A stretch of DNA of 64,000 nt from assembly GCA_964620965.1 (NCBI GenBank), contig CAZUHV010000003.1, forward strand, positions 98,093 through 162,092. The letters run 5' to 3'. Source of the DNA: an uncultured Pseudomonadales bacterium (GTDB taxonomy: Bacteria > Patescibacteriota > Microgenomatia > UBA1400 > PJMF01). The notes under the pieces were generated by a model. That model did no database searches and was not told where the DNA came from. It was given only the letters and a program-made list of their open reading frames with translations. Both the position numbers and the translations under genes were made by a program. This document shows positions 38,914 through 62,349 of the stretch, one piece after another. Positions within the stretch are counted from its first letter, which is position 1; each line of letters begins with the position of its first letter.

Positions 38914-38928
38914 GTCTACAGAGATCTA

Positions 38929-40077: not shown

Positions 40078-40093
40078 TTATTTGTTCCTTGTT

Positions 40094-41566: not shown

Positions 41567-41700
41567 TTTTTTGCTCTAGATAGGCATTTTTTAGTTTTTA
41601 CTTTTTATTTTTTTCAATACGAAAAATAAAGACTTTCTGCCTTGTAGTTTAATAATATAGAGTTTTGCAAAACTATACAATATGCATTTTTTCTTATTAA

Positions 41701-42666: not shown

Positions 42667-42682
42667 AAAATCTGATATCCTG

Positions 42683-43414: not shown

Positions 43415-43418
43415 AGTG

Positions 43419-44141
43419 TTATTTTTTTTCGGTTTCCACTGCTTCAGTATTCATTTGTGTGACTATTTTTTTGCTTTCTGAAGCTAATAATGAAATCTGT
43501 GTTTCTAAAATCTGAGAATCAATTGGTTCGTTTCTATGTGTTGCAGTTTCGAGCATGTCTTGAAGAATATTAAGTTTTGGTAACAAAAATTTTGTAATGA
43601 AACTCTCAAGGGTAAGCTCTTTTTGAATAACTGATTCCAGTTGTTTTTCTTCTTTTTCTGCAATCTTTTGTTGTAGGCGAGCATCGTCATACTGTTTTCT
43701 GGCGAAAAGGAAGAAGATAAGCATGAGTGGTAGAGTTGTAAATGCTGCGATTGTGAGAGAAGTGATTTCTGGCTGTAGTGCATAGTGTACAAGCATGATA
43801 GCTAAAGTTGCTGAGATGGCAGTTACTTGTCTTGTAGTCATAACTAAAAAGAAGAGGTGAATATATGAAAAAGGATAGAAAATCGAGTTGGCATTTCCTG
43901 TGGATCCAATCAAAACTGTGACTGCAAATGACACAAATACAATTTCTAAAGAATTATTTTCTGGCAAGATATGCCAAATTTGTGCTTTCCCTAAGCGTTT
44001 TGAGATGAAAAAACCGAAGATTGCTACTGCAAAAGCTTGGAGTGAGTAGTATGAAAGACTAGGATTGGAGAGCCAAAAATATGCCAGTCCAATTGAGCCG
44101 AGCACTGCGAGAGTGTGTTTTAGTTGTGACATTGTTTTCAT
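43419..44141 (-). CDS. Integral membrane protein (~5 TM) with C-terminal coiled-coil; first gene of the secreted-protein operon
   Basis: N-terminal hydrophobic helices and a C-terminal heptad-like EKEEKQLESVIQKELTLE... segment. It ends 4 bp before the next gene. Confidence 0.45.
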   Translation of the reverse strand: MKTMSQLKHTLAVLGSIGLAYFWLSNPSLSYYSLQAFAVAIFGFFISKRLGKAQIWHILPENNSLEIVFVSFAVTVLIGSTGNANSIFYPFSYIHLFFLVMTTRQVTAISATLAIMLVHYALQPEITSLTIAAFTTLPLMLIFFLFARKQYDDARLQQKIAEKEEKQLESVIQKELTLESFITKFLLPKLNILQDMLETATHRNEPIDSQILETQISLLASESKKIVTQMNTEAVETEKK

Positions 44142-47029: not shown

Positions 47030-47326
47030 ATGGTCGCGATAGACGAACAATTTCAGCTGAAAGTATATAACCAGAATGGTTTAATTTTTGATGAGCTAGT
47101 AACTGCGGTTAGTGCAGAAAACGAGACTGGTCCAATTAGTTTTTTGTCTGGGCATACAAATTTTATTACAACAATTAAGGGGTCTTTAACAGACGAAATG
47201 TTGTTTGCGTATTTTAAAGATGGTTCAAAAAAAGGATTCTTACTTGAATCCGGAGTTGTTAAAATTTTTAACAATGTTGTTGAGGTATTTTTGGTTTTAG
47301 ATCTAAACTTAAATATTGAGAAATAA
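47030..47326 (+). CDS. atpC: F-type ATPase epsilon-subunit-like protein (β-sandwich domain only), convergent to the operon
   Basis: FQLKVYNQNGLIFDELVTAVSAENETGPISFLSGHTNFITTIK aligns with the epsilon N-domain (…L.V…lf…V..v…e.G…i..GHaPl.t.IK…). At 98 aa it lacks the C-terminal helical hairpin. Confidence 0.5.
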   Translation: MVAIDEQFQLKVYNQNGLIFDELVTAVSAENETGPISFLSGHTNFITTIKGSLTDEMLFAYFKDGSKKGFLLESGVVKIFNNVVEVFLVLDLNLNIEK

Positions 47327-47328
47327 TT

Positions 47329-49221
47329 TTATTTCTTTGAGTCTTTTTTTGAAGTTTTCACTTTTGATTTTGCTTCGTTATTTTTCTTTTTGGTTTCCTG
47401 AGGCATTTGAGTAGGAGAGTAGTTCACTACAATATCTTGAGGAGCAAGGCTTCCTTGAATTCCGTGTTTAGACTGAAGTTCTGCACCTTCCAAAAGTAGT
47501 GCTTTATATTTTTCCTCAATATTAAGATCTCTTGACTGTGCAATTTGTGCCTCTCTTTGTTCTCGTTTTATTTTTTTTACTTCATCATCTGTAAGTGTCA
47601 TTGGTGGGTTCGCAGAATCAGTATTTAAGATTGTTCGTTTTTCTTTGATGAATGGTAACTTAGGGAGTTTAAATTTGAATCCCGATTTTTTTTGAACAGG
47701 AAATGCAGGTTCGAAGACTTGTTGTCCTACAGGCTCTTTTGATTCGTTTGGAAAGCTGGTTGGCTGATTTGAAGATGTGCTTGCTTCAGTAGGTGGTTGT
47801 GGAGTTATTTTTTCTTTAGTTGCTGTGTTTTCTTGGGCTTCACTAATAATGCTTTGGTCAATTTTTTCTATGTATAAAAGCTTTTCTGGGTCGATATTAT
47901 CAATTTGCCCAGACAAGATGATTTCTATATCAGCTAGTGTTTGGTCCATTTTGGCAAACACACCTTTTCTATTCGTTTGAGGTTCAGCAACGGTGAGGCT
48001 TTGAGCCATGTAGTTTTCAAGCAAAATTGATCTTTTGTAGGTGACTTGATCTTCAGTAGAAAGCTCAGAAAGGCCAACTAGCGAAACAATTTTTTCTATT
48101 TCGGTTGCTTGTTCAAGGATTCGCTTTGCTTTTACATGTAGGCCAAAGTGTTTGGTTCCAATAATTTCAGGTTCTACAGCCGAAGAATTAGAGGCAATCA
48201 AATCAATAGCAGGAAGTCTTCCAGATTGGTAAATATCTCTTGAGAGCACGATATAGCTATCAAGATAGTAGAGAGCAGAACGAACAGAATAGTCAAAAAG
48301 ATCATCAGAAGGAAGATAGATTGCCTCTATGCTTGTAATATCTGCATCTGGAGTAGAGGTGAGTGCCTCATGAAGTGTTCCAATTTCTGATGGAAGTGTT
48401 GGTTGGTATCCGTCTTCTGATGGAACAGCTTGCATTAAAGTTGAGAGCTCGTATCCAGCCTGGCTAAAACGGTACATATTATCCATAAAAAATAAAACAT
48501 CTTTTCCACGATCTCTGAAGTCTTCTGCTATACTTGCAGCTGCATACGCAGTTCTAAAACGAACTGCTGGATTTTCACCCATTTGACCAACTACCATGAC
48601 AGTTTTATCAAGAACTTTAGATGCTTCTAAGTTTTCAAGTAATTCATGAGCTTCTCTGGAACGTTCTCCAACAGCGCTGAAAACAGAGATACTTTCTTTG
48701 CTTTCTTTGCTTGCGATAACCACATTATGGATTAATTCTGTTAATAGAATAGTTTTTCCAAGTCCAGCCCCTCCAACAAGCCCAATTTTACTTCCTTTTA
48801 AGACAGGAGTGAAAAAGTCGATTGCTCTAATCCCGGTATACAAAATGTCTTTTGGAGTTATGGCAGTTTCTATATTTGTAGCAGTATGGGAATGTAGGGA
48901 CTTAAATTTTTTTGGTTTAAATGGTTTTGCATCTTGAGCGTTTCCAAAAACGTCGATAGCTCTTCCCAAAATTTCATCTCCAACTGGGATCATGAGGTTT
49001 TGTTCTGTATTTATTACAATATCTCCTCTGGCAATCTCATTTTTTTTATTTAAGACAAAACAATAGTAAGTATTTTCTTCCTGAGCGGAAGAAACAACTT
49101 CAAGCTTAATTTCTGGATTTGTTTCTAGAACAAGAACATCAAAAATCGCAGGTTGAGCGAGTGTGAACTCAACTGTTGCGACGTTATCTTGAACTCCAGT
49201 AATTTTTCCTATTTTTTTCAT
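47329..49221 (-). CDS. atpD: F1-ATPase beta-subunit homologue with ~160-aa Lys-rich C-terminal extension
   Basis: P-loop GGAGLGKT. Catalytic region FSAVGERSREAHEL...VLDKTVMVVGQMGENPAVRFRTAYAAASIAEDFRDRGKDVLFFMDNMYRFSQAGYELSTL...GYQPTLPSEIGTLHE. A DELSEED-like SELSTED. At 630 aa it is far longer than the usual ~470; the extra sequence is a low-complexity K/E/P/T tail. Confidence 0.9.
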   Translation of the reverse strand: MKKIGKITGVQDNVATVEFTLAQPAIFDVLVLETNPEIKLEVVSSAQEENTYYCFVLNKKNEIARGDIVINTEQNLMIPVGDEILGRAIDVFGNAQDAKPFKPKKFKSLHSHTATNIETAITPKDILYTGIRAIDFFTPVLKGSKIGLVGGAGLGKTILLTELIHNVVIASKESKESISVFSAVGERSREAHELLENLEASKVLDKTVMVVGQMGENPAVRFRTAYAAASIAEDFRDRGKDVLFFMDNMYRFSQAGYELSTLMQAVPSEDGYQPTLPSEIGTLHEALTSTPDADITSIEAIYLPSDDLFDYSVRSALYYLDSYIVLSRDIYQSGRLPAIDLIASNSSAVEPEIIGTKHFGLHVKAKRILEQATEIEKIVSLVGLSELSTEDQVTYKRSILLENYMAQSLTVAEPQTNRKGVFAKMDQTLADIEIILSGQIDNIDPEKLLYIEKIDQSIISEAQENTATKEKITPQPPTEASTSSNQPTSFPNESKEPVGQQVFEPAFPVQKKSGFKFKLPKLPFIKEKRTILNTDSANPPMTLTDDEVKKIKREQREAQIAQSRDLNIEEKYKALLLEGAELQSKHGIQGSLAPQDIVVNYSPTQMPQETKKKNNEAKSKVKTSKKDSKK

Positions 49222-50090
49222 GACCAGAATCTCATTCCAGAAAGTCTATTTCTTTGTTTTTTGTTTGCTTTATACTTCATTGTTTTAAGTTTAAGTCTTT
49301 TTATTTTTTCTAGCTCCTCTTCAAGGTTATTTTGCGTATTTTGAAGAGTTGATATTCTAGAACCTAAGTTTGCCAGATGAGCTTCTTTAATTTTGTGTTG
49401 GAATAAGTTTGACATAATTTGAATTTCAAAGAAATGGAGGATTTTTTCTTTGTCTGGTTCAAATAAAAAATGTTTTTTTTCTGTATTTTTTATTTCTTCG
49501 GAACTGCTGAGATCAAGATCTCCAGAAATTGTTTCAACTTGAGGTTGTTGATCAACTAAAGAAATATAGTATGGGTTGAAAACGTTAATTTTTTCGTAAT
49601 TTAATAAATGCTTTAGCAGCTTAATATTAGACTTGAGGCTCGTATCTTTTTCTGTTAATTCAAAGTATTCATACTTGGTATTTTGAGGAAAAAATTCGTT
49701 AAAAAGTTTTTTTGCAGTAAGTCCAACGATGACAATGTCACTGTCTGTTTCAGAAATTGTGTTTTTGAAAAATTGTAAACTTTTTCTGTTAATGTCGGTA
49801 GAAAATTTAGTTTCAAAAGAAATGAAAACAGCAACACTTTTACCATTTTTTGTGAGGGTAGAGAAACTAATAATTTCTTTATTTTTAGGATTACTTTTTA
49901 TAAATCGTTTTAAATCTTGTTTGAGGTCTATGAAAGTATTCAACAAACCTTGAAAAAAATCACGACTGTTAATTGTTGCGTCACGATTTTGTTTCATCTG
50001 GTAAATGGTGAGTTTTTGATATGCAGAAAAGAAATCGCCAATTGCATTGAGAGAATCTTCTTGTATTTGTAGTTGTTTTACACTTGGCAT
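49218..50090 (-). CDS. atpG: F1-ATPase gamma-subunit-like protein (divergent)
   Basis: Position between alpha and beta. The N-terminal MPSVKQLQIQEDSLNAIGDFFSAYQKLTIYQM parallels the gamma N-helix (M.s.kei..rI.Sv.nt.kIt.AM.mVAasKm). A C-terminal helix with a conserved-type ending is present. Confidence 0.65.
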   Translation of the reverse strand: MPSVKQLQIQEDSLNAIGDFFSAYQKLTIYQMKQNRDATINSRDFFQGLLNTFIDLKQDLKRFIKSNPKNKEIISFSTLTKNGKSVAVFISFETKFSTDINRKSLQFFKNTISETDSDIVIVGLTAKKLFNEFFPQNTKYEYFELTEKDTSLKSNIKLLKHLLNYEKINVFNPYYISLVDQQPQVETISGDLDLSSSEEIKNTEKKHFLFEPDKEKILHFFEIQIMSNLFQHKIKEAHLANLGSRISTLQNTQNNLEEELEKIKRLKLKTMKYKANKKQRNRLSGMRFWS

Positions 50091-51556
50091 AAATTTAATA
50101 AAACAGATTTTTGAGCTTCGATATTTTTTATAAGTTCCTTAAATGATTTTGAATAGCTGATAAGGTTATCAATTTGCTTTTTTATTTCTTTTTGGCTGAT
50201 ATATTGTTTTTCTAGCTCGAATTTGCATGATGAAACGACATTTTTATGAGTATTTTCAAACCAATTTTGCCAGATCATGGAAAGCAAAATGATCTGCACA
50301 TTGATTGGAAGTCCGTTATTTTCGCTAAAGAAATCGGTAATAAGTTCACCTTTTTGTAGCACTCTTTGGCTTTCTGCACTGATTTCACTGCCTAAATGAG
50401 TAAGGCTCTTTGTTTTTTTGTAACTTGCAAGAAAACTGGTTATCTTAAGATTGATATCACGTTGAACTGGAGTTTGTGTTTGTTTACCAACACGAGTGAC
50501 AGACAGCCCAATGTTTATTGCAGGTCTAACTCCTTGATTGAACAATCTCTGATCAAAGAGGAGATGTCCATCTGTTATAGAAATTAAGTTTGAAGCAATA
50601 AAGTCTGTAAGGTCGCTGTTTGTGGTTCTTACAACAGGAAGACAGGTAAGTGAAACAGATTTATTAGGATCGGTTGGGTGTTGATATGTCCCAGATCTTT
50701 CAAGTAATTGTGCCTGAGAAAAAAAGATATCACCTGGAAACGAGTCTCTTCCTGGAAATTTCTTTGCAAGCAAAGAAATTTCTCTATAAAACTCTGCTTG
50801 TGAAGTCAAATCATCCAGAATTAAAAGAACGTTATTTCCCAAACTTAAAAGGTGCTCTGCAACTGTCATTGCAGCAAATGGAGTAACAACAATAGAGCTA
50901 ATAGAGTCTTTGGGTGTAGAAGCAACAATTGTGATTGAATCCATAACCTTTTTTTCTACAAAAAAATCAAATGCATTTTTAATGTCTGAAGTTTTCTTGG
51001 AAATCATAGCGTACACAACTTTATTTCCACCTTGCGCTTGTTTAACAGCTAAGTTTTTTGCAAAGTTACTTTTACCAGATTTTCTGTCTCCAATGAGGAG
51101 CTCGCGCTGACCTTCACCAATAGGGAGGAGTAGGTCTGTAACACTAAACCCAGTAATAAGTTGTTGTGTTGTCCTTCTTCTTTTAGTGATACTTGGTGGT
51201 TCAGCATACATTTCTTTAAAGATAGTATTTTTTTCTTTCGACTTGTTGATTGTAGTCAAGAGATCTCCTACAGAGTTAAACACAGAGCCTAGTAGTTGTT
51301 GAGTAATTGGGAACGAAAGCTGTTTGTTGGTTCTGTAGAGTCTTTCACCAGTCTTGACTGGATCTTTTGAAAAAACCATAAGTTTGATTGTATCTTGTGT
51401 AAACGAGAGTACCTGTCCAACAGATGCATTCTCGAAAATAACCATCTCGCCTGGATTTATATTAGAAAATCCTTTTGCTGTAACCAAAGGATGATTTACA
51501 GAGGTGACCTCTGCATATTCATTTTTGTTGATTTGATACTGTGCTTCTTGTTTCAT
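50078..51556 (-). CDS. atpA: F1-ATPase alpha-subunit homologue
   Basis: GQRELLIGDRKSGKS parallels GQRELIIGDRQTGKT. ILDDLTSQAEFYREISLLAKKFPGRDSFPGDIFFSQAQLLERS parallels YDDLSKQAVAYRQ[MI]SLLLRRPPGREA[FY]PGDVFYLHSRLLERA. ISITDGHLLFDQRLFNQGVRPAINIGLSVTRVG is also present. Confidence 0.85.
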   Translation of the reverse strand: MKQEAQYQINKNEYAEVTSVNHPLVTAKGFSNINPGEMVIFENASVGQVLSFTQDTIKLMVFSKDPVKTGERLYRTNKQLSFPITQQLLGSVFNSVGDLLTTINKSKEKNTIFKEMYAEPPSITKRRRTTQQLITGFSVTDLLLPIGEGQRELLIGDRKSGKSNFAKNLAVKQAQGGNKVVYAMISKKTSDIKNAFDFFVEKKVMDSITIVASTPKDSISSIVVTPFAAMTVAEHLLSLGNNVLLILDDLTSQAEFYREISLLAKKFPGRDSFPGDIFFSQAQLLERSGTYQHPTDPNKSVSLTCLPVVRTTNSDLTDFIASNLISITDGHLLFDQRLFNQGVRPAINIGLSVTRVGKQTQTPVQRDINLKITSFLASYKKTKSLTHLGSEISAESQRVLQKGELITDFFSENNGLPINVQIILLSMIWQNWFENTHKNVVSSCKFELEKQYISQKEIKKQIDNLISYSKSFKELIKNIEAQKSVLLNLCQV

Positions 51557-52011
51557 GTAATGAGTTCTGTTTCTAGTGATTTTTCGTAAATTTTCCCATC
51601 AAACTCTATTTTTAAACCGATTAACTCTGGATTAATTGAATAATCAACAATAATTTGTGAACCATTTTTTTGTTGTAATTTGTTTGCTATTTGTTCGATT
51701 TGGTCTCTGGTTGGTTCGTATCCAAGTGTTAGATGAATAACAGGTATCTTAGAAATGTATGTTCCAACAGAGGCAATGGTTTCGATTAGTTCTTTTGGTG
51801 TCTCAGTGTTTCCAACAATTAGTTCTAGAGGTTTAAAAAACCTCACAGGAACTGTAGTCTTGAGTTTTTTTAAAAACTTTGAGGCATCTTTTGTATAGGC
51901 AGCATCACGAACTATTGAAAGAGAGTCTAAAATCACAGCTCGGTCAGCTGTTGTTACTATGAGTTCACCTGCAAGTTTTTCTAGTTCAGTTGTTGTCATT
52001 TCTATTTCCAA
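51553..52011 (-). CDS. atpH: F-type ATPase delta (OSCP)-like subunit
   Basis: The C-terminal IIVDYSINPELIGLKIEFDGKIYEKSLETEL matches the delta/OSCP C-terminus (…vdpsLiGG..i..gd.viDgSv..rL). Position between b and alpha. Confidence 0.6.
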   Translation of the reverse strand: MEIEMTTTELEKLAGELIVTTADRAVILDSLSIVRDAAYTKDASKFLKKLKTTVPVRFFKPLELIVGNTETPKELIETIASVGTYISKIPVIHLTLGYEPTRDQIEQIANKLQQKNGSQIIVDYSINPELIGLKIEFDGKIYEKSLETELIT

Positions 52012-52622
52012 ATTTCATCAATAATTTGCAGTGTTAGTTCATGTTTTTCAGAGTTTTTTATTGCTTTTCCTAAATATTTTTGTGCAACTTTTGTCACTAA
52101 CTTTTCACTTTCTTGCGCAATCTTTTCTTTTTGTTGGGTTTTAAACTCTTGGATTTCTGTTTTTGTTGTTTGAGCTTCTTTTACAAGTTCGTCTGCGACT
52201 TGTTTTTGTAAAGTTGCTATTGTTTCTTGCAGAGTAGTGCTTAAATTTTTCACTTCTGTTGTTAAGGCTGTAACAAGCTCTTGTGACGAGTGTTGAGCAT
52301 GCTTTTTAAGCAGATCTTTTTGCTGTTCGACGATTTCTTCTGTAATATCATCAACTCTTTGGTGCAGTTTTAATGTAAAGTTTTTAACTTCCGAATGAAC
52401 ATCATGATATTGCTCTAGAGTTTTGAGGATGATTTCTTGAGATTCATCTTTTGTTGCAGAAACAACTTTTTCTAGTTGCTCTTTAATGTGTTTGAACTCA
52501 TTTTTGTATTCTTCATCAATTTTTTCGAGTCTTTTTTTGTCGGACCTGAGTTTATATGCAATTATTAACTCTAGTACGAGTCCTAAGATTACGACAGCGA
52601 GTATGTTATATGTTTGGTCCAT
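52002..52622 (-). CDS. atpF: F-type ATPase b-subunit-like (single N-terminal TM + long coiled coil)
   Basis: N-terminal helix ILAVVILGLVLELIIAYKL, then ~170 aa of heptad-rich K/E/Q sequence. Operon position matches b. Confidence 0.55.
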   Translation of the reverse strand: MDQTYNILAVVILGLVLELIIAYKLRSDKKRLEKIDEEYKNEFKHIKEQLEKVVSATKDESQEIILKTLEQYHDVHSEVKNFTLKLHQRVDDITEEIVEQQKDLLKKHAQHSSQELVTALTTEVKNLSTTLQETIATLQKQVADELVKEAQTTKTEIQEFKTQQKEKIAQESEKLVTKVAQKYLGKAIKNSEKHELTLQIIDEIWK

Positions 52623-52633
52623 AGTTTCCTTTT

Positions 52634-53482
52634 TTACAGTGACACCACAAAATAGGCACCTGCTATTCCGGCACCAATGATTGTGACACTGATTAATATG
52701 TTAACAAAAATTCCAGTAAGGATGCTACTTTTGGCTAATGGATTTCTTCCCAAAGCCTCAATTCCTTTTTGTGAAGTTCTAGAAAAACTGACAAATGCAA
52801 TGGTGACTGCTGTTAAAAGAATGATCCCTGCAACGACATACTTAAACACTTCTTTTGGATCGTCGATTGCTGCAATTGCACTCAAACTTACTATATCTCG
52901 CAGTCTATTACCAATCGTTTCTGAATCAGGAGTATCTTCTCCAAATGTAAAGTCTTTTGCAATTCTTACGTCAATAAGACCTTTGTCACTTGCAGAATTA
53001 CCATCAAATTCTTGCATGGCAATTCCAAGAGTAAATCCAGATTTAACTGCTTTCATGCCAACCCCAGCAACTGAGGAGGCTGTAATGTAATCGCCTTTTT
53101 CTATTGGCCCACTTTCTCCAGAGACAAGAACAGGCGCTGTTCCAGAACTGACGATTGGGACTTCTCCTTCACTTATATTTTCTGGTTGGGTAAGTGGAAG
53201 GGTATTAATGAACTCAATTTTAGGAAATAAATTGACTGAACCAATAATTGCTCTGTCATAGGCTTCGCTACTCAGTTGATACTGTCCATTTTTATGGGCA
53301 ATAATCATGCCATTTTCTATTTCTTGGCCATCTTGGACAAATATTTCAACAGGGTAGGCAACGCCAAAACTTGTCTCAGTTTCTTGTGCAAACACTGTTG
53401 AAGTGGTGGGCAGTAAAACAACAAGCAACATCAAAGTTGCTGTGATGTTTGTAATTAATTTTGTCACAATTCCATTGTACAT
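52634..53482 (-). CDS. Fusion of a secreted ~200-aa domain to a C-terminal F0 c-subunit-like helical hairpin that lacks the ion-binding carboxylate
   Basis: Signal peptide (…TSTVFAQ). A soluble domain of unknown type. The C-terminal VVAGIILLTAVTIAFVSFSRTSQKGIEALGRNPLAKSSILTGIFVNILISVTIIGAGIAGAYFVV aligns with the c-subunit …SRTIEGIARQPEL…FIGVALVEALPII…. The polar loop is R-N-P. Helix 2 has no Asp/Glu (Asn 13 residues after the loop Pro; the canonical position 18 is Val), and helix 1 lacks the GxGxGxG motif. Confidence 0.55.
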   Translation of the reverse strand: MYNGIVTKLITNITATLMLLVVLLPTTSTVFAQETETSFGVAYPVEIFVQDGQEIENGMIIAHKNGQYQLSSEAYDRAIIGSVNLFPKIEFINTLPLTQPENISEGEVPIVSSGTAPVLVSGESGPIEKGDYITASSVAGVGMKAVKSGFTLGIAMQEFDGNSASDKGLIDVRIAKDFTFGEDTPDSETIGNRLRDIVSLSAIAAIDDPKEVFKYVVAGIILLTAVTIAFVSFSRTSQKGIEALGRNPLAKSSILTGIFVNILISVTIIGAGIAGAYFVVSL

Positions 53483-53745: not shown

Positions 53746-56700
53746 ATGTTTAACCAAACAAAAACTCGAGCAAAGGGTAAGGGTCTTTTGTTGCCTATGG
53801 CTTTGTTTTTTGTGGTTTTTATTAGTGTATATTTTTTTAGATTTCCTCTAGAGTCATGGTTCGGTGTAATTAGAACAGAGTCCAACGCTGAAACAATACA
53901 GGATTTAAAAAGCACCGATTCTGAGGGAAAAGTTAAAGGTATTACAACTGAAACTCAAGAAACGCAAGATCTTGTACAAAAACCTCAAGGAGAAGTTAAA
54001 GCAGTTTCAGACGACATTACAGAAAATAGTTTGGTTTTTAGGCTAAAAGTATTTTTCTTAGACACAATAGGGGCAGTTTCAGCTAAATTTGATACAGATT
54101 TAGAAGTTGGGAATGATGTTGTCATTGGCAATGATCTTGATGTGGGTGGGCAGTTAACTCTTGCAGGAGATTTGGTTGCTCCAAATGTTTTGTATTCGCT
54201 TACCGCTGGGACAGGTGTCACTATTAGTGGAGATCAAGAAATTACAATAACGAACGATGATTTAGGTTCTGATCAAGAAATATTCAAAAACTTTAAGATT
54301 GGTGATACGACTATTAGTGCTGGTTCAAATGACGATACATTAACTTGGCAAGGTGGAACAGGTATTTCACTTTCTAGTGATGGAAAAACAGTGACAGTTT
54401 CTGCAAGCGGTTCTGACCTTAATGTATCTGGTTTTACGGATGGGGGAAGTTCAGTATATCTAACGACAAGCACAGATAATGTAGGGATTGGAACCTCAAA
54501 TCCAGGTTATAAATTACATGTTGTTGGAACAAGTTATTTCAGTGGAAACGCTACATTTGCTGGTGGCACAGTAATTTCTTCTGGAATTAATAATTCTTCT
54601 GGAGGAATAACTAATGCTGGTCCGATTACCGGAGCAACAGGGCTTACTTCCTCTGGAACAATTACATTTTCAGGTCTTGGTACTGGCATAGTGCATAGTA
54701 ATGTTAATGGAGTTATTTCTTCTTCTGCACTTAATTTAGCAGGTGGAGGAACAGAAATTACTGGTACTTTGCCTGTTACAAATGGTGGTACAGGACTAAC
54801 TTCTGCAACAACGGGCCAGATTATATATGCATCAGCGGCAAATACTTTTGCGACGCTTGGGATTGGCTCAGAAGGACAAGTCCTTACAGTGAGCAGTGGA
54901 ATTCCTGCATGGGGAAGCTCTGGATCAGGATCTCCTTGTGCAACATGTATTGTTAATAATCCCGGATCAACACAAACAATTACGCCTGCGGCAGCAACGG
55001 CAACAGGTCTAGTAGTCAAACAAGCTACAAGTGGTTCTGTTGATGTATTTAGGATAGAAAGCAATGATGGTTCCAGTACCTTTTTCAAGATTGATTCTTC
55101 TGGAAATGTGACACTTGGTAACCAGACAAGTAGTGGAGTGTTTACTGTTTCTCCAACAAATACAGATCCAATCTCAATTTCTCCAGTTGCTGAAGGTGCA
55201 GGACAGTATACAGGAACAATAACTTCAGAAGATCTTACTGCTGCAAGGACATGGACATTTCCAAATGAATCTGGAATTATTTGTTTAGCCTCTGGAAATT
55301 GTAGCGGAACAGCAGCAGGTGTTGGAGGATCTGGAACAGCTCATTATCTATCAAGATGGAGTAGTACGTATGGACTTACAGATTCTATTATTTATGATTC
55401 TGGCACAAATATTGGAATTGGTTCAACGAGTCCAGGTGCGAAACTAGATCTTGTTGGTACGTTTAATGTAAGTGGATTGGCAACTTTAGCAGATGATCTG
55501 CAAGTAAATAAACATGCAACAATTTCAGGGTCTTTAACTGTAGACCAAACAGTTGATTTTAATTCAACTCTTGGGGTAACTGGAGCAACGACTCTGGGCT
55601 CAACTTTGGATGTAACAGGATTGGCAACGTTTGGTGGGAATGTGGGGATTGGAACAACAAGTCCAAACTATTATCTAGATGTGAGAGGAGCTGGATCAAG
55701 TAGTGCGCGTTTTAATTTTGCTTCAACAGATAGTAGTGCGGCAAAAGTTAGAATTGGTACGACTAATGGGGCATATCACTTTAATGTAAACTCTAGTGGA
55801 GAATTCCAGATAGATAGAGAAAGCGGAAATAGTAGTATCTTTTCGATACAAGGAGATGCTCCTGCAAACTTGTTTAATCTTCAATCTTCTGGCGGTGGAT
55901 TTATTGCGATAGGGGGGGATATTACCCCAAGTACAAAAGTTGGAGATGTTCACCTCGTTGACTCGAATTCTCCATCCTCAACACATGGTTTAGCGTTAGA
56001 TGTTGATTCCACAACAACACAGTCAGTTATTTTCAGAGAAAATAGTAATAATGTTTTTAGATTACGGTCAACTTTGGGAAATGGAACGTATGCAAATAAT
56101 TCTTTGAGTTTTCAAACAGATACTGACTCTGGAAGTGGTGCTACTTATGGTGATTTGTTGACTATTTTGCAGGGGGGAAATATCGGTATAGGAACAAATC
56201 TTCCTACTGCTCGGCTACAAATCGTTGGTGATGAGGTACGAATTGGTGATGCAGGCACAGTTACCTATGCAACAGGAGATGGTGAACTCTATGTAGAAGG
56301 TGATCTGGAGGTTGACGGACAAGTTTATTTAGACGGAAGAATAAATTTGTTGTCTAATGTAGACCAAATAAATAGCTCTAGAGCAACTTTTTATGGATTC
56401 AACCATACAGGTTCTACTCTTATTTACAATACTCAAGGGCAACACTGGTGGAGAACAAATGATCTAACGAGAATGATTCTTGCAAATAATGGGTATTTTG
56501 GGATAGGAGGAAGTACTCCTGTTGGTCTCTTTAATGTTGAAGGAGCAGCAACAGGTAAAGCTCTTGCAATTCTTAATGAGACTGGTGACCAAGATATTTT
56601 TGCAGCTTCTGCTTCTGGAACAAACAGATTTACCATTAAAAACAGTGGTAACGTTGGCATAGGAACAACTAATCCGCTTGCCGCACTACATATTGGACAA

Positions 56701-59700
56701 GGAACGCCAAATGCAATTGATGGAACAAGTGGAGATGATCTTTTTGTAAGAGATGATCTAGAGGTTGATGGTATTAGTACTTTAGGTACGACAACTTTCG
56801 CTGCCGGTACAACAACTTTTAGTAATGGTGTTTTGAGGTTTAACAGTAATGGAGAATATCTTTATCTTCAAAGTCAATCTGATGATGGAATTCATTTTGC
56901 ACTTGGTACCAATGGGTTTGGAAATAACAGTATGGTTATTACAACACAAGCTAATAGATCTGTAGATCATGGACATAATACGTTACAGACTAATCCAACA
57001 GTTTTTATTCATTCAGCAACAGCACCAGGAACAAGTAATCTAGAATGGGGTAGTTTAAGTTTTGAAGGTACGGGATCTGGTGGAGGATATTTTAACTTGG
57101 CTTCTGGAGTTGGTAATTTAGCCTTATCTCCTGCAAGTGGCAACGTAGGGATAGGAACTACTGCTCCAGTACATGCGCTTGAGGTAAATGGGAATGTTGC
57201 CCTAGGCCAATTTTTGTACCATTCAGGAGATACAGATACATATTTCAGATTTGGAACAGATCAATGGCAGATAGCTGCTGGTGGAGCTGGTTTTTTTGAT
57301 TTCAGTGAAGGGGCAACTGATATAGCGACTTTTAACTATAATAATGCAGATATTGACTTTAGTATTAATGGCGACACAAATAATGGAATCTTTTTCGTTG
57401 ATGGAGCTTTAGAGCGCATAGGTATTGGAACTACTACACCAAGTTATACTCTTGATCTTGTTGGAGAATTTAACTTAACGGATGCAATTAGGATAGCTGG
57501 CGATGCTGGTACTTCTGGCTATCTCCTTACCTCCTCTGCTGGAGGAGCTATGACCTGGACAGATCCTACAACTTTAGGATCTGCATTTGGTCACTGGGAA
57601 AATACACTTAATGTTTTACATCCAAAAAATGAGTATGCGGCTGTAGTTGATCTTGCTCTGGGTGGCACGTCCACTGCTTCTGCAAACATTCATCTGCAAT
57701 CTAGTGGACAAGCCTATTTTGGTGGAAATGTTGGAATAGGAACAACAGATCCATCTAATGCAATGGTTGATCTCTATGGGAATCAGATACATCTGTATTT
57801 ACATGATACTTTTGGAACGGGTGCTGTAATTCGTGAAACAGGAGATAATCTTGTTCTTCAGTCTCAGGGAGGAAGTATTTCTGCTTTAACTGGAGCAGCT
57901 GATGGAAGTACAGGTTTTTCATTGATCAACAGTTCAAGTCAAACGGCAATTAGTTTATTAGATAATGGTGGAGCAATCTTTAACGAGCAGGGGAATGACG
58001 CTGATTTTAGAATTGAAGCATCTGGTCAAACTAATGCATTTTTCTTGCAAGGTTCTGATGGTAATATTGGTATTGGTTCTGCAAGTCCAGGTTATAAACT
58101 TGATGTTGTAGGAAGCCTAAGGCTTTCTACTGGTAACACAAACGGGTGGGTTCATACAGACGGAACAGTTCAATTAGCTTCATATTTGGGAGTTAATTAT
58201 GGAAAAATAACAACTTTAGGAAACCACGCATTAAGACTTGGATTTAATAATACTGTTGAAGTGCTTTCTATAAATACAACAGCACATGTTGGTATACAAG
58301 ATGTATCTCCGGAGGCTGTGTTTGAAGTAACAGGAACTGGCACATCTGATGATGAGCTTTTTATGGTAAGTTCCGTTGCGGCAAATGATGGGGATATTTT
58401 TACTGTAAGAAGAAATGGAAATGTCGGTATAGGTTCGACTACCCCAATAGGGAAGTTAAACGTATCAGGAGCAGCAACAGGCAAGGCTTTAACAATTCTT
58501 AATGAAACAGGTGATCAAGCATTTTTAACTGCTTCTGCATCTGGAACTACTAAATTTGTACTAGACAGAGATGGATCAATTTATTGGAGTGAGTATGGTT
58601 GTTCTAATCAAAACTGTATTACTCCGTCAGCAAGACATACTTTTTATGATTACGATATTTATGCACACAATGGGGGAACGATATCGTTAAATGCTGATGG
58701 AGACATTGCTTTAAATGCAGGAGGCAACGTTGGGATAGGCTCAACCTCTCCTGGAGCAAATCTTAATATTTTTCAAAGTAGTCCTACTGCAAACCAGATT
58801 TTATTTCAAATTGGAACAAGTGATTCAGCAACGAGATTTACTGTTGATGAAGATGGAGATGGACACTTTGGAGGTGATGTAGATGCTCGAACTTTTTATG
58901 CAGGTAATGGTGTTGTAACAGGGCCTACACTTTCTTTCTTAAACGACACAAATACAGGAATATATAGACCTGGAGTTGATACATTGGGTTTAGTCACAGG
59001 GGGAGGAGAAAGGTTAACGATCAATGCAGGAGGCAACGTTGGGATAGGCTCAACCTCTCCTGGATTAGCACTAGACGTTGTTGGAAGTGCACGATTTAGT
59101 GCTGTAGGTTCTGGAACATACTCAAATGACCTTAATCTAACTTCCGATGGTACACTTACTACTTCAAGTTCTGATATTAGGTTGAAAGAAAACCTAGTTG
59201 AGCTTACAGACAGTGAAGTTCTTTCTAAAGTTTTGCAGTTGCAAACATACACTTTTGACTGGAAACAAAATGGAGCACATGACTATGGTATGGTTGCTCA
59301 AGAAGTCGCACAGATTTTTCCACAAATTACGTTTACCAATAAAACAGATGGGTTTATGGGAATTAATTACTCGAGAGTTCCAACTTTATTAGTCAGTGCG
59401 GTCCAAGAGCAGCAAAGGCTCATTGATTCACTAAAGCTTCAAGTTGAAGGTATCTCTGGTGCAAATGCTCAATCAGTCGGACAAACTGAGACTAGTACAA
59501 CGCAAACCGGCCAGAACACACAAACAGAAGCAATTACTCTACAAAGTTTAGTTTCAGAATTTGTCTCTTTCCCAGATTCGGTTTGGACATTTGTAAAAGA
59601 GGTTGTGTTTACTGCTCAAACGAAGTTTATGGCAAATGTGAGCTTTATGAAACAGGTAGTGTTTAAAGATGAACTTAAAGTTAATTCAAATACTTCTGGT

Positions 59701-60114
59701 AGGTTTATTATTCTTCAAGGTACCAAAAAGGTAAGAATCGCTTTTGATAGCCAGTTTTCCGAAGTTCCAACAGTGTATTTGTCTCCTCAATCTCAAGTTG
59801 TAGGCGGATATAGCATTAGTTCTATAGATGAAACTGGTTTTGCCGTTTCACTTAATGAAAACCAGACAACAACACTTACATTTGATTGGCTTGCCCTATT
59901 AAGTTCTAGGACTCAAAACGCTCCAGTAACTGTTCTTGAAGAGTTTACCGGTGCTACAGAGGGTAGCGTATCTGGAGTAAGCACTGAACAGACAGAAGTT
60001 CTTGAGGAAAGTCAAACAGTACTTGAAGAATCAGAACCAGCAGCAACGGAGGAAGCCGATTTAGGTCATTCAGAAATGCCGGTTGCAACAGATTCTGGAT
60101 CAGTTGCTGAATAA
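53746..60114 (+). CDS. Giant (2122 aa) signal-anchored surface protein, paralogue of the 5319-aa protein; tail-fibre-like repeat array + canonical C-proximal Peptidase S74 intramolecular chaperone domain
   Basis: The N-terminal anchor is LLLPMALFFVVFISVYFF. Shared modules include NLTDAIRIAGDAGTSGYLLTSSAGGAMTWTDPTTLGS...NTLNVLHPKNEYAAVVDLALGGTSTASANIHLQSSGQAYFGGNVGIGTT and AIFNEQGNDADFRIEASGQTNAFFLQGSDGNIGIGSASPGYKLDVVG. The S74 domain is SSSDIRLKENLVELTDSEVLSKVLQLQTYTFDWK...YGMVAQEVAQIFPQI...GINYSRVPTLLVSAVQEQQRLIDSL. Confidence 0.8.
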   Translation: MFNQTKTRAKGKGLLLPMALFFVVFISVYFFRFPLESWFGVIRTESNAETIQDLKSTDSEGKVKGITTETQETQDLVQKPQGEVKAVSDDITENSLVFRLKVFFLDTIGAVSAKFDTDLEVGNDVVIGNDLDVGGQLTLAGDLVAPNVLYSLTAGTGVTISGDQEITITNDDLGSDQEIFKNFKIGDTTISAGSNDDTLTWQGGTGISLSSDGKTVTVSASGSDLNVSGFTDGGSSVYLTTSTDNVGIGTSNPGYKLHVVGTSYFSGNATFAGGTVISSGINNSSGGITNAGPITGATGLTSSGTITFSGLGTGIVHSNVNGVISSSALNLAGGGTEITGTLPVTNGGTGLTSATTGQIIYASAANTFATLGIGSEGQVLTVSSGIPAWGSSGSGSPCATCIVNNPGSTQTITPAAATATGLVVKQATSGSVDVFRIESNDGSSTFFKIDSSGNVTLGNQTSSGVFTVSPTNTDPISISPVAEGAGQYTGTITSEDLTAARTWTFPNESGIICLASGNCSGTAAGVGGSGTAHYLSRWSSTYGLTDSIIYDSGTNIGIGSTSPGAKLDLVGTFNVSGLATLADDLQVNKHATISGSLTVDQTVDFNSTLGVTGATTLGSTLDVTGLATFGGNVGIGTTSPNYYLDVRGAGSSSARFNFASTDSSAAKVRIGTTNGAYHFNVNSSGEFQIDRESGNSSIFSIQGDAPANLFNLQSSGGGFIAIGGDITPSTKVGDVHLVDSNSPSSTHGLALDVDSTTTQSVIFRENSNNVFRLRSTLGNGTYANNSLSFQTDTDSGSGATYGDLLTILQGGNIGIGTNLPTARLQIVGDEVRIGDAGTVTYATGDGELYVEGDLEVDGQVYLDGRINLLSNVDQINSSRATFYGFNHTGSTLIYNTQGQHWWRTNDLTRMILANNGYFGIGGSTPVGLFNVEGAATGKALAILNETGDQDIFAASASGTNRFTIKNSGNVGIGTTNPLAALHIGQGTPNAIDGTSGDDLFVRDDLEVDGISTLGTTTFAAGTTTFSNGVLRFNSNGEYLYLQSQSDDGIHFALGTNGFGNNSMVITTQANRSVDHGHNTLQTNPTVFIHSATAPGTSNLEWGSLSFEGTGSGGGYFNLASGVGNLALSPASGNVGIGTTAPVHALEVNGNVALGQFLYHSGDTDTYFRFGTDQWQIAAGGAGFFDFSEGATDIATFNYNNADIDFSINGDTNNGIFFVDGALERIGIGTTTPSYTLDLVGEFNLTDAIRIAGDAGTSGYLLTSSAGGAMTWTDPTTLGSAFGHWENTLNVLHPKNEYAAVVDLALGGTSTASANIHLQSSGQAYFGGNVGIGTTDPSNAMVDLYGNQIHLYLHDTFGTGAVIRETGDNLVLQSQGGSISALTGAADGSTGFSLINSSSQTAISLLDNGGAIFNEQGNDADFRIEASGQTNAFFLQGSDGNIGIGSASPGYKLDVVGSLRLSTGNTNGWVHTDGTVQLASYLGVNYGKITTLGNHALRLGFNNTVEVLSINTTAHVGIQDVSPEAVFEVTGTGTSDDELFMVSSVAANDGDIFTVRRNGNVGIGSTTPIGKLNVSGAATGKALTILNETGDQAFLTASASGTTKFVLDRDGSIYWSEYGCSNQNCITPSARHTFYDYDIYAHNGGTISLNADGDIALNAGGNVGIGSTSPGANLNIFQSSPTANQILFQIGTSDSATRFTVDEDGDGHFGGDVDARTFYAGNGVVTGPTLSFLNDTNTGIYRPGVDTLGLVTGGGERLTINAGGNVGIGSTSPGLALDVVGSARFSAVGSGTYSNDLNLTSDGTLTTSSSDIRLKENLVELTDSEVLSKVLQLQTYTFDWKQNGAHDYGMVAQEVAQIFPQITFTNKTDGFMGINYSRVPTLLVSAVQEQQRLIDSLKLQVEGISGANAQSVGQTETSTTQTGQNTQTEAITLQSLVSEFVSFPDSVWTFVKEVVFTAQTKFMANVSFMKQVVFKDELKVNSNTSGRFIILQGTKKVRIAFDSQFSEVPTVYLSPQSQVVGGYSISSIDETGFAVSLNENQTTTLTFDWLALLSSRTQNAPVTVLEEFTGATEGSVSGVSTEQTEVLEESQTVLEESEPAATEEADLGHSEMPVATDSGSVAE
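59165..59460 (+). other. Peptidase S74 (intramolecular chaperone auto-processing) domain of the 2122-aa protein
   Basis: A canonical S-D-x-R-L-K-x-N catalytic Ser/Lys signature (SDIRLKEN). The …QEVxxxxPxxV……G…xNYxxLxxLLVxAVQE… pattern is present, followed by a ~220-aa C-terminal region. Confidence 0.7.
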
Positions 60115-60182: not shown

Positions 60183-60830
60183 ATGCTATATGATTCTAAA
60201 GAATCAATCCCTTTTAAAGAGTACTTCACTCAAAAGCCAGTTTTTATTTGGTTAGTTATTTTTTTTCTTTTCATTTTGGGGGTAGGGTTTGGTATTTTTG
60301 GAATTTACGAATTGTTTAGCTCAAATGATCAAGAAATAGTAAGTAGCTCAGATGTTGAGAATCAGGTATGCACACAAACCACCGATTTTGGACAAATCAC
60401 AGTGTACATATCTGGTGCAGTAACTCATCCTGGTGTCTATGTATTAAATTCTGGAAATAGGTTAGTCGATTTAGTTGCATCTGCAGGAGGAATTAGCTCT
60501 GTTGCCGACAAATTGTATGTAAATAAGCAATTTAATTTAGCTCAAAGGTTGAGTGATGGTGAGCAAGTGTATATCCCAACAAATGCAGAAACAGAAGCTG
60601 CGTTAGAAGTGCAACAACAGAAACAAGAACAACAAGTAGGGAGCATTGATAATCCTATATCAATAAATTCTAGTACTAAAGAAAGTCTAATGGAGTTATC
60701 GGGAATTGGAGAGGCTAGAGCTACAAAAATTATCGAAAATCGACCGTATAGCTCTATAGAAGAACTACTCACAAAAGAAGTAATTTCTCAGTCAATTTTT
60801 GATGAAATAAAAGAAAAAATGGTGCTATAA
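60183..60830 (+). CDS. comEA: Competence protein ComEA (TM anchor + SLBB + tandem helix-hairpin-helix DNA-binding domain)
   Basis: The N-terminal TM is VFIWLVIFFLFILGVGFGIFGI. The SLBB-like region is ITVYISGAVTHPGVYVLNSGNRLVDLVASAGGIS. The C-terminal HhH region is INSSTKESLMELSGIGEARATKIIENRPYSSIEELL. Confidence 0.8.
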   Translation: MLYDSKESIPFKEYFTQKPVFIWLVIFFLFILGVGFGIFGIYELFSSNDQEIVSSSDVENQVCTQTTDFGQITVYISGAVTHPGVYVLNSGNRLVDLVASAGGISSVADKLYVNKQFNLAQRLSDGEQVYIPTNAETEAALEVQQQKQEQQVGSIDNPISINSSTKESLMELSGIGEARATKIIENRPYSSIEELLTKEVISQSIFDEIKEKMVL

Positions 60831-61005
60831 ATTGTCATCAATTTATTTAAAATTATTGAGACTTAGCTATAGGATAATAAAATGCAAGGCAGTTGTGATT
60901 GGGGAAATATAAAAAGAGCTGTTTTTGGTAAAAACACGAATAAAACACTATTTTAAAATCAAAGTATATCAATAATTATTATATGTTTATATTCAATAAA
61001 ATGTT

Positions 61006-62349
61006 ATGCATAAATACATTTTAATCATAATTTTTATATTAATATTAACGATAATATTGCAACAATTATATTTTCGTACGAACAACTTGCAAAGCAGTAT
61101 TGAGGAAGGGTCGACCCAAAATCATGAAAATGAACTGAAAACAGTTCATTTGAGCACCAACTTTGAGATAGTCAGTTTGCTAGGCTACACCAGGATGAAG
61201 GCTTTTTCTACTTATAGTGATATAAAAACAGCTGCAATTGGCTTTTTTGACAACTTGAGTATTAGCAGAGAGTCACTTGTTATTGATAAGCATTTTTTTT
61301 CAAAAAAAGGATTGATTTTAGAATCTAAAGACTGCTTTATAACATGGAGTTGTTCGATTGATGTTTGGAAACGCTTTTTCAACTTTTTTGAAACTCAATT
61401 TGTAAGAGCAAGAGAAGGCTTTACCACTCGCTCTACAACAACTTTGAACCAGATGTTTTACTCAAGTATATCAGAAGTTGTCACTCGACTATTACTCGGC
61501 AGTGCTACCCCTACAACAGTAATAAACAGTCATCTTTATAAAGTTACGGGGACGTTGCATTTATTTGCAATTTCCGGTTTTCACTTAACTTTTTTTATTT
61601 CTTTTGTGCGTAAATCTTATGCTCGTATTTTTTCAAAAAAAAGCATTTTTTTCTGTGATTTGTTATTTTCAATTGTGTTTTTCTGCCTTGTGGGTTACTC
61701 TCCAGGCCTGTTAAGGGCGTTTTTTATGTTTTTATTATCAAGTATAGCCTGGAGTCTAAATAGGCAAAAAAACGGTATTTTGAGTTTATTTTTCTCTTTT
61801 TTAATAGCAAATTTAATTGATTTAAAGGCACTTAATCAAGTTGGGTTTCAACTTTCATATGGTGCAACTTTGGGAATTTTACTATATTCTCAAGCTTATT
61901 TTAGCCGTTTTCCTCAAGTAAAAAACAAATTTATAAGGATTTTGTTAAATAACTTAGGTATCAGCTTTGCTGCACAAATAGCCATTTTACCTCTGGTACT
62001 GTACCATTTTGGTACTATTAGCTTGCTTAGTACTGTTGTCACAGTTTTTGTTTCTTGGTTGGTACCACTCATAATGCAACTGGGATACAGTTTTGTGTTG
62101 TTCAGTTTTATTGTTCCCCAAAACATTTTGTTTATTCTATCGTTGCCACTGTTTTTTGCTGTTTCAACTTTGTTACAAATTTTAGAATTCTTTAATTTTG
62201 ATGGAGCATTAATTTCAGTTCCAAATTTTTCAATTGTACATGTGTGTATGTATTATGGTTCTTTCGTGGTTTTTGGATTGCTATGGTATGTAGTTTTAAG
62301 GACAAAAAATGATGCTAAAAATAACAAAATATATCATTTTTCTCTTTAG
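61006..62349 (+). CDS. comEC: ComEC/Rec2 N-terminal part (DUF4131-like + Competence domain polytopic membrane region)
   Basis: The Competence-domain signature TGTLHLFAISGFHLTFFISF parallels the ComEC motif ...LLAISGLHVG... Multiple TM helices follow. The ORF stops inside an overlap with the next ORF. Confidence 0.7.
   Translation: MHKYILIIIFILILTIILQQLYFRTNNLQSSIEEGSTQNHENELKTVHLSTNFEIVSLLGYTRMKAFSTYSDIKTAAIGFFDNLSISRESLVIDKHFFSKKGLILESKDCFITWSCSIDVWKRFFNFFETQFVRAREGFTTRSTTTLNQMFYSSISEVVTRLLLGSATPTTVINSHLYKVTGTLHLFAISGFHLTFFISFVRKSYARIFSKKSIFFCDLLFSIVFFCLVGYSPGLLRAFFMFLLSSIAWSLNRQKNGILSLFFSFLIANLIDLKALNQVGFQLSYGATLGILLYSQAYFSRFPQVKNKFIRILLNNLGISFAAQIAILPLVLYHFGTISLLSTVVTVFVSWLVPLIMQLGYSFVLFSFIVPQNILFILSLPLFFAVSTLLQILEFFNFDGALISVPNFSIVHVCMYYGSFVVFGLLWYVVLRTKNDAKNNKIYHFSL

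Follow-up and report, generated by a model that had tools for sequence, protein, structure and literature searches.

We analyzed a 64,000-nucleotide stretch of DNA from an uncultured bacterium (GenBank assembly GCA_964620965.1, contig CAZUHV010000003.1; G+C content 37%), referred to here as the window, which carries on its minus strand a divergent F1-type ATPase operon whose first gene fuses a secreted domain to a hairpin resembling the c subunit of ATP synthases. The genes follow in the order fusion, b-like, delta/OSCP-like, alpha, gamma, and beta. The fusion open reading frame (ORF; 52634..53482, minus strand, ATG start) encodes 282 aa plus a stop and comprises a signal peptide, an external beta domain, a helix, and the c-subunit-like hairpin. 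Its Sec-type signal peptide (residues 1-32, 53387..53482) has a modelled helix at residues 3-23 and a predicted cleavage site after A32, between VFA and QE. Across the family, Ala occupies position -1 in 101 of 111 sequences, a small or aliphatic residue position -3 in 110 of 111, and Gln position +1 in 94 of 111, and in 99 of 111 a charged n-region leads into a hydrophobic h-region, so that the signal peptide proposed in a first-pass annotation of the window is borne out. Next come the external beta domain (residues 33-186, 52925..53386), whose fold is that of phage tail-fibre C-terminal barrels or capsid decoration proteins and in which G114, G125, S136, G140, and G149 are invariant in 111 sequences, and a conserved helix with the pattern LxDIxxLSAIA..E.P (residues 187-208, 52859..52924) that lies between this domain and the membrane. 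The first-pass annotation had described this region as a hydrophilic domain of about 200 aa; its soluble, secreted nature stands, while its size has to be revised to a beta domain of about 150 aa plus a 20-aa helix. The hairpin itself consists of transmembrane helix 1 (TM1; residues 209-234, 52781..52858), with conserved P209, Y215, and A218, a cytoplasmic loop containing GIEALGRNPLA (residues 235-254, 52721..52780), and transmembrane helix 2 (TM2; residues 255-282, 52637..52720), which contains no acidic residue. The predicted topology, with a signal peptide, the domain outside, and the positively charged loop inside, is that of a normal c subunit and agrees with the external placement that the N-terminal side had been given earlier. 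The signal peptide and the structure model together suggest that the N-domain is located outside the cell.

Chance does not account for the fusion ORF. Among 5.8 billion proteins searched, 250 homologues were found at E<=1e-3 in clusters at 90% identity; the 120 listed range from 236 to 303 aa, with query coverage of 62-100%, mostly more than 85%. When a profile of the family was compared with 1.84 billion cluster representatives (50% identity), 691 proteins matched at E<=1e-30; the 150 top representatives listed are 230-346 aa long, match the profile from near the start to the end, and share one architecture. A scan of one genome per GTDB species placed relatives of the fusion in at least 300 species of Microgenomatia/WWE3, so that homologous fusions, which the first-pass annotation had proposed to look for, do exist in other genomes and are full-length among the homologues listed. 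[quoted passage not shown] It had also been suggested that a stand-alone c subunit has no obvious start within this ORF, with GTG and TTG starts left open. We found no conserved internal start before TM1: the Val codon at that site is GTG in 6 of 47 sequences, against a background of 18%, and 34 of 71 relatives have no ATG, GTG, or TTG within the 28 codons preceding this Val. Since the N-domain is conserved as protein and no internal start is conserved, the fusion protein appears to be made full-length, and the downstream translation start that could have overturned the fusion finds no support in the constant architecture of the 150 representatives listed.

The remaining genes of the operon encode a divergent F1 with intact catalytic motifs. 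The b-like subunit (206 aa, 52002..52622, minus strand) has an N-terminal transmembrane (TM) helix and a long charged helix and matches no family model; a gene of the same place and shape occurs in the related locus L062. The delta/OSCP-like subunit (152 aa, 51553..52011, minus strand) matches PF00213 (9.5e-6) in its C-terminal part only. The alpha subunit (492 aa, 50078..51556, minus strand) is divergent and retains the P-loop GDRKSGKS and the arginine finger SVTRVG, the gamma subunit (290 aa, 49218..50090, minus strand) is very divergent (PF00231, 2.7e-12), and the beta subunit (630 aa, 47329..49221, minus strand) has intact GGAGLGKT, GERSRE, and DNMYRF motifs. Epsilon (98 aa, 47030..47326, plus strand) consists of the beta-sandwich only, matching PF02823 (1.3e-8) and, in a separate comparison, positions 2-77 of a 130-position model, and lacks the C-terminal helices, which inhibit hydrolysis in bacterial enzymes. 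All F1 subunits score below the NCBI curated cut-offs for the canonical equivalogs: 314 bits for alpha (cut-off 484), 384 for beta (463), 32 for epsilon (67), 35.7 for gamma (TIGR01146, 194), and 26.8 for delta (TIGR01145, 57.5). Against the mycoplasma gliding (MMOB1660/1670) and MSC_0619/0618 families, the scores of alpha and beta are nearly as good as against atpA and atpD, with 330.8 bits for alpha against glide_MMOB1660 (cut-off 600), 266.6 bits for alpha against MSC_0619 (cut-off 520), and 359.7 bits for beta against MSC_0618 (cut-off 570). They stay below the cut-offs of these NCBIfam F1-like families, and the fusion protein matches none of them.

Several features of these subunits deserve mention in their own right. 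The alignment of alpha begins only at model position ~19-20, so that the N-terminal segment by which canonical enzymes bind delta is missing, although a delta-like gene is present in the window operon. Beta residues 466-630 (47329..47823, minus strand) form a probably disordered C-terminal extension of 165 aa in which Lys, Glu, Pro, and Ser abound; the Woesebacteria beta (463 aa) has no such extension, and in other relatives (570-589 aa) it is shorter. The epsilon gene lies on the strand opposite to the operon, convergent with beta and co-directional with leuS, as it does in the closest relatives L001 and L005; in the more distant relatives L004, L007, and L075, epsilon follows beta on the same strand, which indicates a small local inversion.

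This gene order is widespread. Alpha, gamma, and beta lie directly downstream of the fusion gene in 75 of 84 related loci, the exceptions being WWE3 and short contigs, and the head of the operon, which the fusion occupies, is the normal place of a c gene. Most operons have space for b-like and delta-like genes between the fusion and alpha, and both are present in L062; in a complete Woesebacteria chromosome, the fusion gene is followed by alpha, gamma, beta, and epsilon only, with no b or delta. In WWE3 (L003/L031, JAAXWF010000001.1), no ATPase genes lie within 10 kb downstream of the fusion gene, which still adjoins a large divergent ORF (at least 897 aa, truncated) and whose product is named 'ATP synthase F0 subunit C' at NCBI. 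No second alpha/beta/gamma set was found inside the same loci. Two MAGs each carry two fusion-type operons with their own alpha, gamma, and beta (L012 and L036 in CAYVAJ01; L063 and L066 in CAYQEE01), which is unusual for a housekeeping ATP synthase.

The c-like peptide singled out in the first-pass annotation spans residues 233-277, with R246-N247-P248 as its polar loop, and the hallmarks claimed for it (a helix, a polar R-(Q/N)-P loop, and a second helix) are confirmed by profile, fold, and gene position as homology to the F-type c subunit. Like c subunits, the region is a helical hairpin of two TM helices of about 70-85 residues. When a profile of 38 hairpins was compared with 177,635 distinct PDB sequences, six matched at E<=10 (E 0.003-1.6), and all six are F-type c subunits, led by Acetobacterium woodii c2 (4bem, E=0.003) and Chloroflexus aurantiacus c (9itj, E=0.01). 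The absence of any similarity to ATP-synt_C, which would have counted heavily against the earlier claim, is therefore not what the search returned. The alignment is in register from the loop, where the family sequence GRNPLA corresponds to GRQPEA in A. woodii c2 and GRNPEI in Chloroflexus c. Among single hairpins, 14 of 38 match Pfam PF00137 (best E=1.1e-4), and hhalign of the hairpins against ten c subunits gave P=4.8e-4 over 66 columns. Descent from an F-type c subunit is the only reasonable reading, given the profile evidence and the position heading an F1 operon. The TM1 consensus YxxAGxxxxxSxxxGFxSFGR has small residues every ~3-6 positions rather than every second one, and the GxGxGxG packing motif of c-subunit TM1 is absent from the family.

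Conservation within the protein peaks in the cytoplasmic loop. In GIEALGRNPLA the mean top-residue frequency is 0.76, compared to 0.49-0.57 in other mature segments, and R246, N247, and P248, as well as A250 and I254, are invariant in 111 of 111 sequences. The polar loop of the c subunit is the docking surface for gamma and epsilon in ATP synthases. Because this loop is the most conserved segment, we suggest that the contact with gamma and epsilon has been kept by selection while the ion site has gone.

The ion-binding carboxylate is indeed missing, as the first-pass annotation had claimed. Within the last 78 aa, acidic residues are limited to D207, D208, E211, and E242, none of them in the membrane-embedded parts of the helices. 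Alignment to solved c subunits and hhalign both place the carboxylate column at V266 (P248+18; codon GTC, 52685..52687, minus strand). None of 261 family members has D or E at this position, which I, V, L, or F fills in 239 of the 260 that were scored, and only two members have an acidic residue anywhere in the membrane part of TM2, neither at P+18. The earlier statement that Asn/Val replaces the carboxylate was right about Val, which sits at the exact position, and wrong about Asn, which lies five residues upstream as N261 (P+13; codon AAC, 52700..52702, minus strand), an invariantly polar position of TM2 with N in 249, H in 8, and S in 3 of the 260 members. P+17, one helical turn from P+13 on the same TM2 face, is Thr or Ser in 207 of the 260. 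Since the defining carboxylate is absent, the fusion is not a member of the c-subunit family in a functional sense.

Genes for a and c are normally adjacent, and subunit a (PF00119) carries an essential Arg. We searched for subunit a with an arginine-motif regular expression, with Pfam on 37 multi-TM ORFs, and with phmmer --max using E. coli a and human ATP6, and found none in the 64-kb window or within ±10 kb of the fusion gene in 84 related loci. Nor did a small canonical c ORF turn up in the window or in any of these loci. Two candidates were rejected. A 73-aa ORF just upstream of the fusion gene in L002, considered as a small c or AtpI, is low-complexity junk, and a 240-aa multi-TM protein (43419..44141), considered as a replacement for subunit a, was dropped since it has no Pfam match and is syntenic only in the closest relatives (8 matches).

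The external domain of the window protein has no Pfam or PHROG match. Against predicted viral structures, its best matches are parts of large tail or appendage proteins (E 8e-11 to 1e-8), some of them named 'preneck appendage protein barrel'. One relative (P0080) comes just short of the threshold for XM1_gp53 and Phage_cement, with 25.1 bits for PF23982 (E 1.7e-5; cut-off 27) and 18.5 for PF22758. The domain shares its beta fold with the C-terminal barrels of phage tail fibres and preneck appendages, such as the phi29 gp12 C-terminal fragment (PDB 3gqh), and with capsid decoration or cement proteins (HFTV1, Sf11 gp40, XM1 gp53, TW1, Pam3 gp6; PF23982, PF22758). Unlike these proteins, it is not part of a virion and is tethered by a helix to an ATPase membrane hairpin, and the identity is only 10-23%. 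A scan of 2.9 million viral contigs found no fusion in phage; the N-domain core occurs in four viral contigs, one of which (L085) carries it at the extreme C-terminus of a 1338-aa fibre-like phage protein.

The fusion gene is also linked to giant fibre-like genes. In the window, its upstream neighbor is divergent and encodes a surface-fibre protein of 2122 aa (53746..60114, plus strand) with GIGT-type repeats, a Peptidase_S74 tail-fibre chaperone domain (4.7e-13), and an H-type lectin domain (H_lectin, 1e-4). The upstream neighbor is at least 700 aa long in 34 of 63 informative loci, a length reached by 38 of the 679 remaining genes of these loci (Fisher p=1e-21, a statistic that ignores shared ancestry). 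The giants are mostly divergent from the fusion gene and are co-directional with gaps of 2-15 nucleotides in four loci; in L036 (MAG CAYVAJ01), a 1594-aa giant gene ends 2 nucleotides ahead of it. A hidden Markov model (HMM) of the N-domain matches inside eight neighboring giants (E 1.5e-19 to 2.8e-5). As an oddity, the giant of L075 (5450..9754, minus strand; Woesebacteria CP066686.1) opens with a MerR-type helix-turn-helix domain (PF13411, 1.1e-9) and a hydrophobic stretch before its fibre repeats, and the L021 giant begins much the same way; a cytoplasmic DNA-binding head on a surface fibre protein is unexpected.

Our best reading, on which we are evenly divided, is that the operon encodes an F1-like ATPase that has been repurposed, is not chemiosmotic, and transmits torque to a crown exposed at the cell surface. 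The evidence for it is the loss of the carboxylate, the conservation of the loop, the position in the operon, the lack of a subunit a or canonical c within ±10 kb, the intact F1 motifs, the truncated epsilon, the sub-threshold F1 scores that come close to those against the mycoplasma families, the external placement of the N-domain, and the linkage to giants, to which we add the paired operons in single MAGs. Copies of the fusion would form a c-like ring beneath the foot of gamma and epsilon. Such a ring should be unable to move H+ or Na+ by the known mechanism of a-subunit Arg and c-subunit carboxylate, and because it could not translocate ions, F1 would run as an ATPase only. Since the external domains would sit on the ring, torque from F1 would pass through the ring to a crown made of them. 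More speculatively, this crown may engage the giant tail-fibre-like surface proteins encoded next door, several of which have a homologous domain, and, by analogy with mycoplasmas, cytoplasmic ATP might be used to assemble, move, or remodel surface fibres in a place that has no ATP of its own. Rather than making ATP, such a motor would burn it and probably performs mechanical work at the cell surface. The most specific version, an extracellular-output rotary or torsional motor in which the crown of the ion-free ring grips homologous domains of giant trimeric surface fibres so that ATP rotates, assembles, or retracts adhesive fibres with which these episymbionts would engage their hosts, is a tentative proposal that we find doubtful as it stands.

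Several points weigh against the torque-passing ATPase. The main uncertainty concerns subunit a, whose absence is stated for the surroundings of the operon, meaning the window and the ±10-kb loci that our searches covered. A COG table of 33 CPR genomes, none of which is tied to a fusion-type operon, lists one subunit a for some Microgenomatia with the operon type unspecified (PMC10656485). The window fusion protein alone has no PF00137 match at E<=1 and no NCBIfam match, so that Pfam misses ATP-synt_C in it; its sole Pfam match, Pox_A14, was judged spurious. Most operons, including that of the window, keep a b-like and delta-like stalk, and a stalk normally implies a stator anchored on subunit a. 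In the Woesebacteria operon without b and delta, an unanchored F1 head would spin rather than the ring. On the side of the giants, the neighbor statistic makes no correction for shared ancestry, the window's own giant has no N-domain copy detectable by HMM, and N-domains and giant copies showed no signal of co-evolution, with same-locus pairs at 47.7 bits and cross-locus pairs at 45.6. Finally, we infer ring formation, rotation, and contact with the giants from sequence.

The rival that keeps closest to a conventional enzyme is that the complex still translocates ions as a synthase or pump, with subunit a encoded elsewhere and an unconventional neutral site, made of N261, the Thr/Ser at P+17, and backbone carbonyls, that might bind an ion such as Na+; the external domain would then be an ornament or attachment point. 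The polar pair that TM2 conserves along one of its faces (P+13 is N, H, or S in 260 of 260, and P+17 is T or S in 207 of 260), the stalk kept in most operons, and the Microgenomatia with one subunit a in the COG table (PMC10656485) all fit this idea. Nevertheless, we judge it unlikely. To our knowledge, every characterized F/V/A rotor ring uses Glu or Asp, and neither Asn nor Ser can carry a proton. No subunit a lies within 10 kb in the window or the 84 loci, despite the usual adjacency of a and c, and the F1 subunits are as distant from the canonical equivalogs as are the mycoplasma F1-like ATPases. Moreover, the ProAD database labels carboxylate-free c/K subunits 'non-catalytic' (PMC11738941).

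A static scaffold, in which the hairpins oligomerize only to anchor or display the external domain as a platform for fibre docking or assembly while F1 is a decaying relic or does not rotate, also seems improbable to us. It would suit the class of the external domain, which includes C-terminal barrels of trimeric phage fibres such as the phi29 gp12 fragment, as well as the Woesebacteria operon without a b/delta stalk and the WWE3 gene that lies apart from F1 genes yet beside a large ORF. However, the most conserved part of the protein is the cytoplasmic loop rather than the membrane or external parts, which argues for a maintained contact with gamma and epsilon, and intact F1 motifs in an operon conserved across at least 300 species fit poorly with decay.

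The fusion might instead join a mixed ring as a minor or accessory subunit, or act as an assembly factor, beside a canonical c and Fo encoded elsewhere, much as the carboxylate-poor c1 of A. woodii occurs with c2/c3. In the COG table, the CPR genome GCA_001790445 has two sets of alpha, beta, gamma, and epsilon and a single a, b, c, and delta (PMC10656485), which hints that canonical and fusion-type systems can coexist in some genomes, and the WWE3 fusion gene does not stand beside ATPase genes. On the other hand, the fusion sits at the c position of its own operon in 75 of 84 loci, no locus contains a canonical c ORF, and the gene arrangement, if two systems do coexist, points to separate complexes as in mycoplasmas; we therefore give a mixed ring only a slim chance. 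Convergence, by which the hairpin would be an unrelated two-helix membrane anchor that merely resembles c, draws on the missing Pfam and NCBIfam c-subunit matches of the window protein, the modest profile E-values (0.003-0.01), and the ease with which any helical hairpin superposes on another, and can be dismissed as extremely improbable since only c subunits were reached among 177,635 PDB sequences, in register from a GRNP loop shared with Chloroflexus c, and the gene holds the c position of the F1 operon in 75 of 84 loci.

The rest of the window includes further genes of note. An ORF of 5319 aa with a TTG start (18715..34674, minus strand) encodes a second giant protein of the window. A six-gene run (36796..44141, minus strand) begins with the 240-aa multi-TM protein, which has a coiled-coil tail, and continues with five secreted or anchored proteins of 243, 321 (weak Fn3-like match), 490, 382, and 705 aa; the multi-TM gene and the next two keep their place beside leuS in the closest relatives L001 and L004, and the run may be a cell-surface assembly cluster. 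Beyond the 2122-aa giant gene lie competence genes (60183..63262, plus strand) for ComEA, with SLBB and HHH domains, and ComEC, the latter split into two overlapping ORFs with the Competence domain (61006..62349) and the metallo-beta-lactamase domain (62309..63262). The operon is flanked by ComEA and ComEC in L004 too, as it is in the Woesebacteria contig that carries P0042.

What defines a rotary ATPase is ion flow at the a/c interface coupled to ATP, and a large, strongly conserved family of 691 clusters in at least 300 species departs from this definition, with a ring subunit that has lost its ion site, has no neighboring a gene, and has acquired an external domain. Its existence implies that a major lineage of uncultivated, ultra-small bacteria has put the F1 motor to a different use. 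In genome surveys the carriers count as having an incomplete or a conventional ATP synthase, and their bioenergetics may therefore be misread. In a few database records, members of the family bear just the label 'ATP synthase F0 subunit C', one survey notes 'minimal complexes' in CPR and gives no domain architecture or context of this fusion (PMC10656485), and our full-text literature searches found no published description of the fusion. Through this family, a connection between a cytoplasmic ATPase and the giant surface proteins that typify CPR becomes testable.

Compared to the F-type c subunit (PF00137; Chloroflexus 9itj, A. woodii c2 4bem), the fusion shares the hairpin of ~75 residues and the R-(Q/N)-P loop, with GRNP identical in Chloroflexus, as well as the gene position before b in an F1 operon and termini that face outside with the loop inside. 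It differs in having Val at the ion site, no GxGxGxG motif, a signal peptide and an external extension of ~175 aa before the hairpin, and no adjacent a gene, and the window protein falls below the Pfam and NCBIfam thresholds. Carboxylate-free hairpins are themselves known from A. woodii c1 and from V-type proteolipids, which have one site per four helices. ProAD lists 20 F/N-type and 41 A-type 'non-catalytic' c/K subunits without Glu/Asp, with no domain architecture or context given (PMC11738941). In the characterized cases, however, other hairpins or subunits of the ring keep the carboxylate and a/I is present, whereas the fusion operon has neither and its rotor subunit bears an external domain.

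The nearest functional precedent, by analogy, is the mycoplasma F1-like X0 ATPases, of which Type 2 powers gliding and Type 3 is required for the MIB-MIP antibody-cleavage system; in both clusters (MMOB1610-1670 for Type 2, MMCAP2_0575-0581 for Type 3), one gene product, known as 'Protein 5' (MMOB1650 / MMCAP2_0577 / MSC_0620), combines a signal peptide with a large ectodomain and, at its C-terminus, two TM helices (PMC12994834, PMC3369863). Judged by published descriptions, the fusion is built likewise and likewise has alpha-, beta-, gamma-, and epsilon-like neighbors, while the NCBIfam models of the Protein 5 families detected no sequence similarity to it. Both systems have a divergent F1 with intact motifs, a genome-reduced and host-dependent bacterium, linked large surface proteins, and, within the loci examined, no a or canonical c, and the loss of the alpha N-terminal segment reported for the mycoplasma alpha-like subunit is shared by the window alpha. 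The organisms, on the other hand, are CPR and not Mollicutes, the two-TM part in CPR is still recognizably c, and the ectodomain is small (~150 aa) with a phage-fibre fold. The CPR operon also lacks the 12-TM 'Protein 1' and 'Protein 2', whereas the mycoplasma clusters encode a small cytoplasmic protein besides the 12-TM one, and most CPR operons keep b-like and delta-like genes, which the mycoplasma clusters lack and which only the Woesebacteria operon was noted to be without. The family may help explain the two-TM 'Protein 5' and, if the fibre-gripping version of our reading is true, would represent a second, independent F1-powered surface machine beside the mycoplasma gliding and MIB-MIP systems, and the first case of a rotor ring itself crossing the membrane as a drive shaft. 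We class the fusion system with the repurposed F1-like ATPases.

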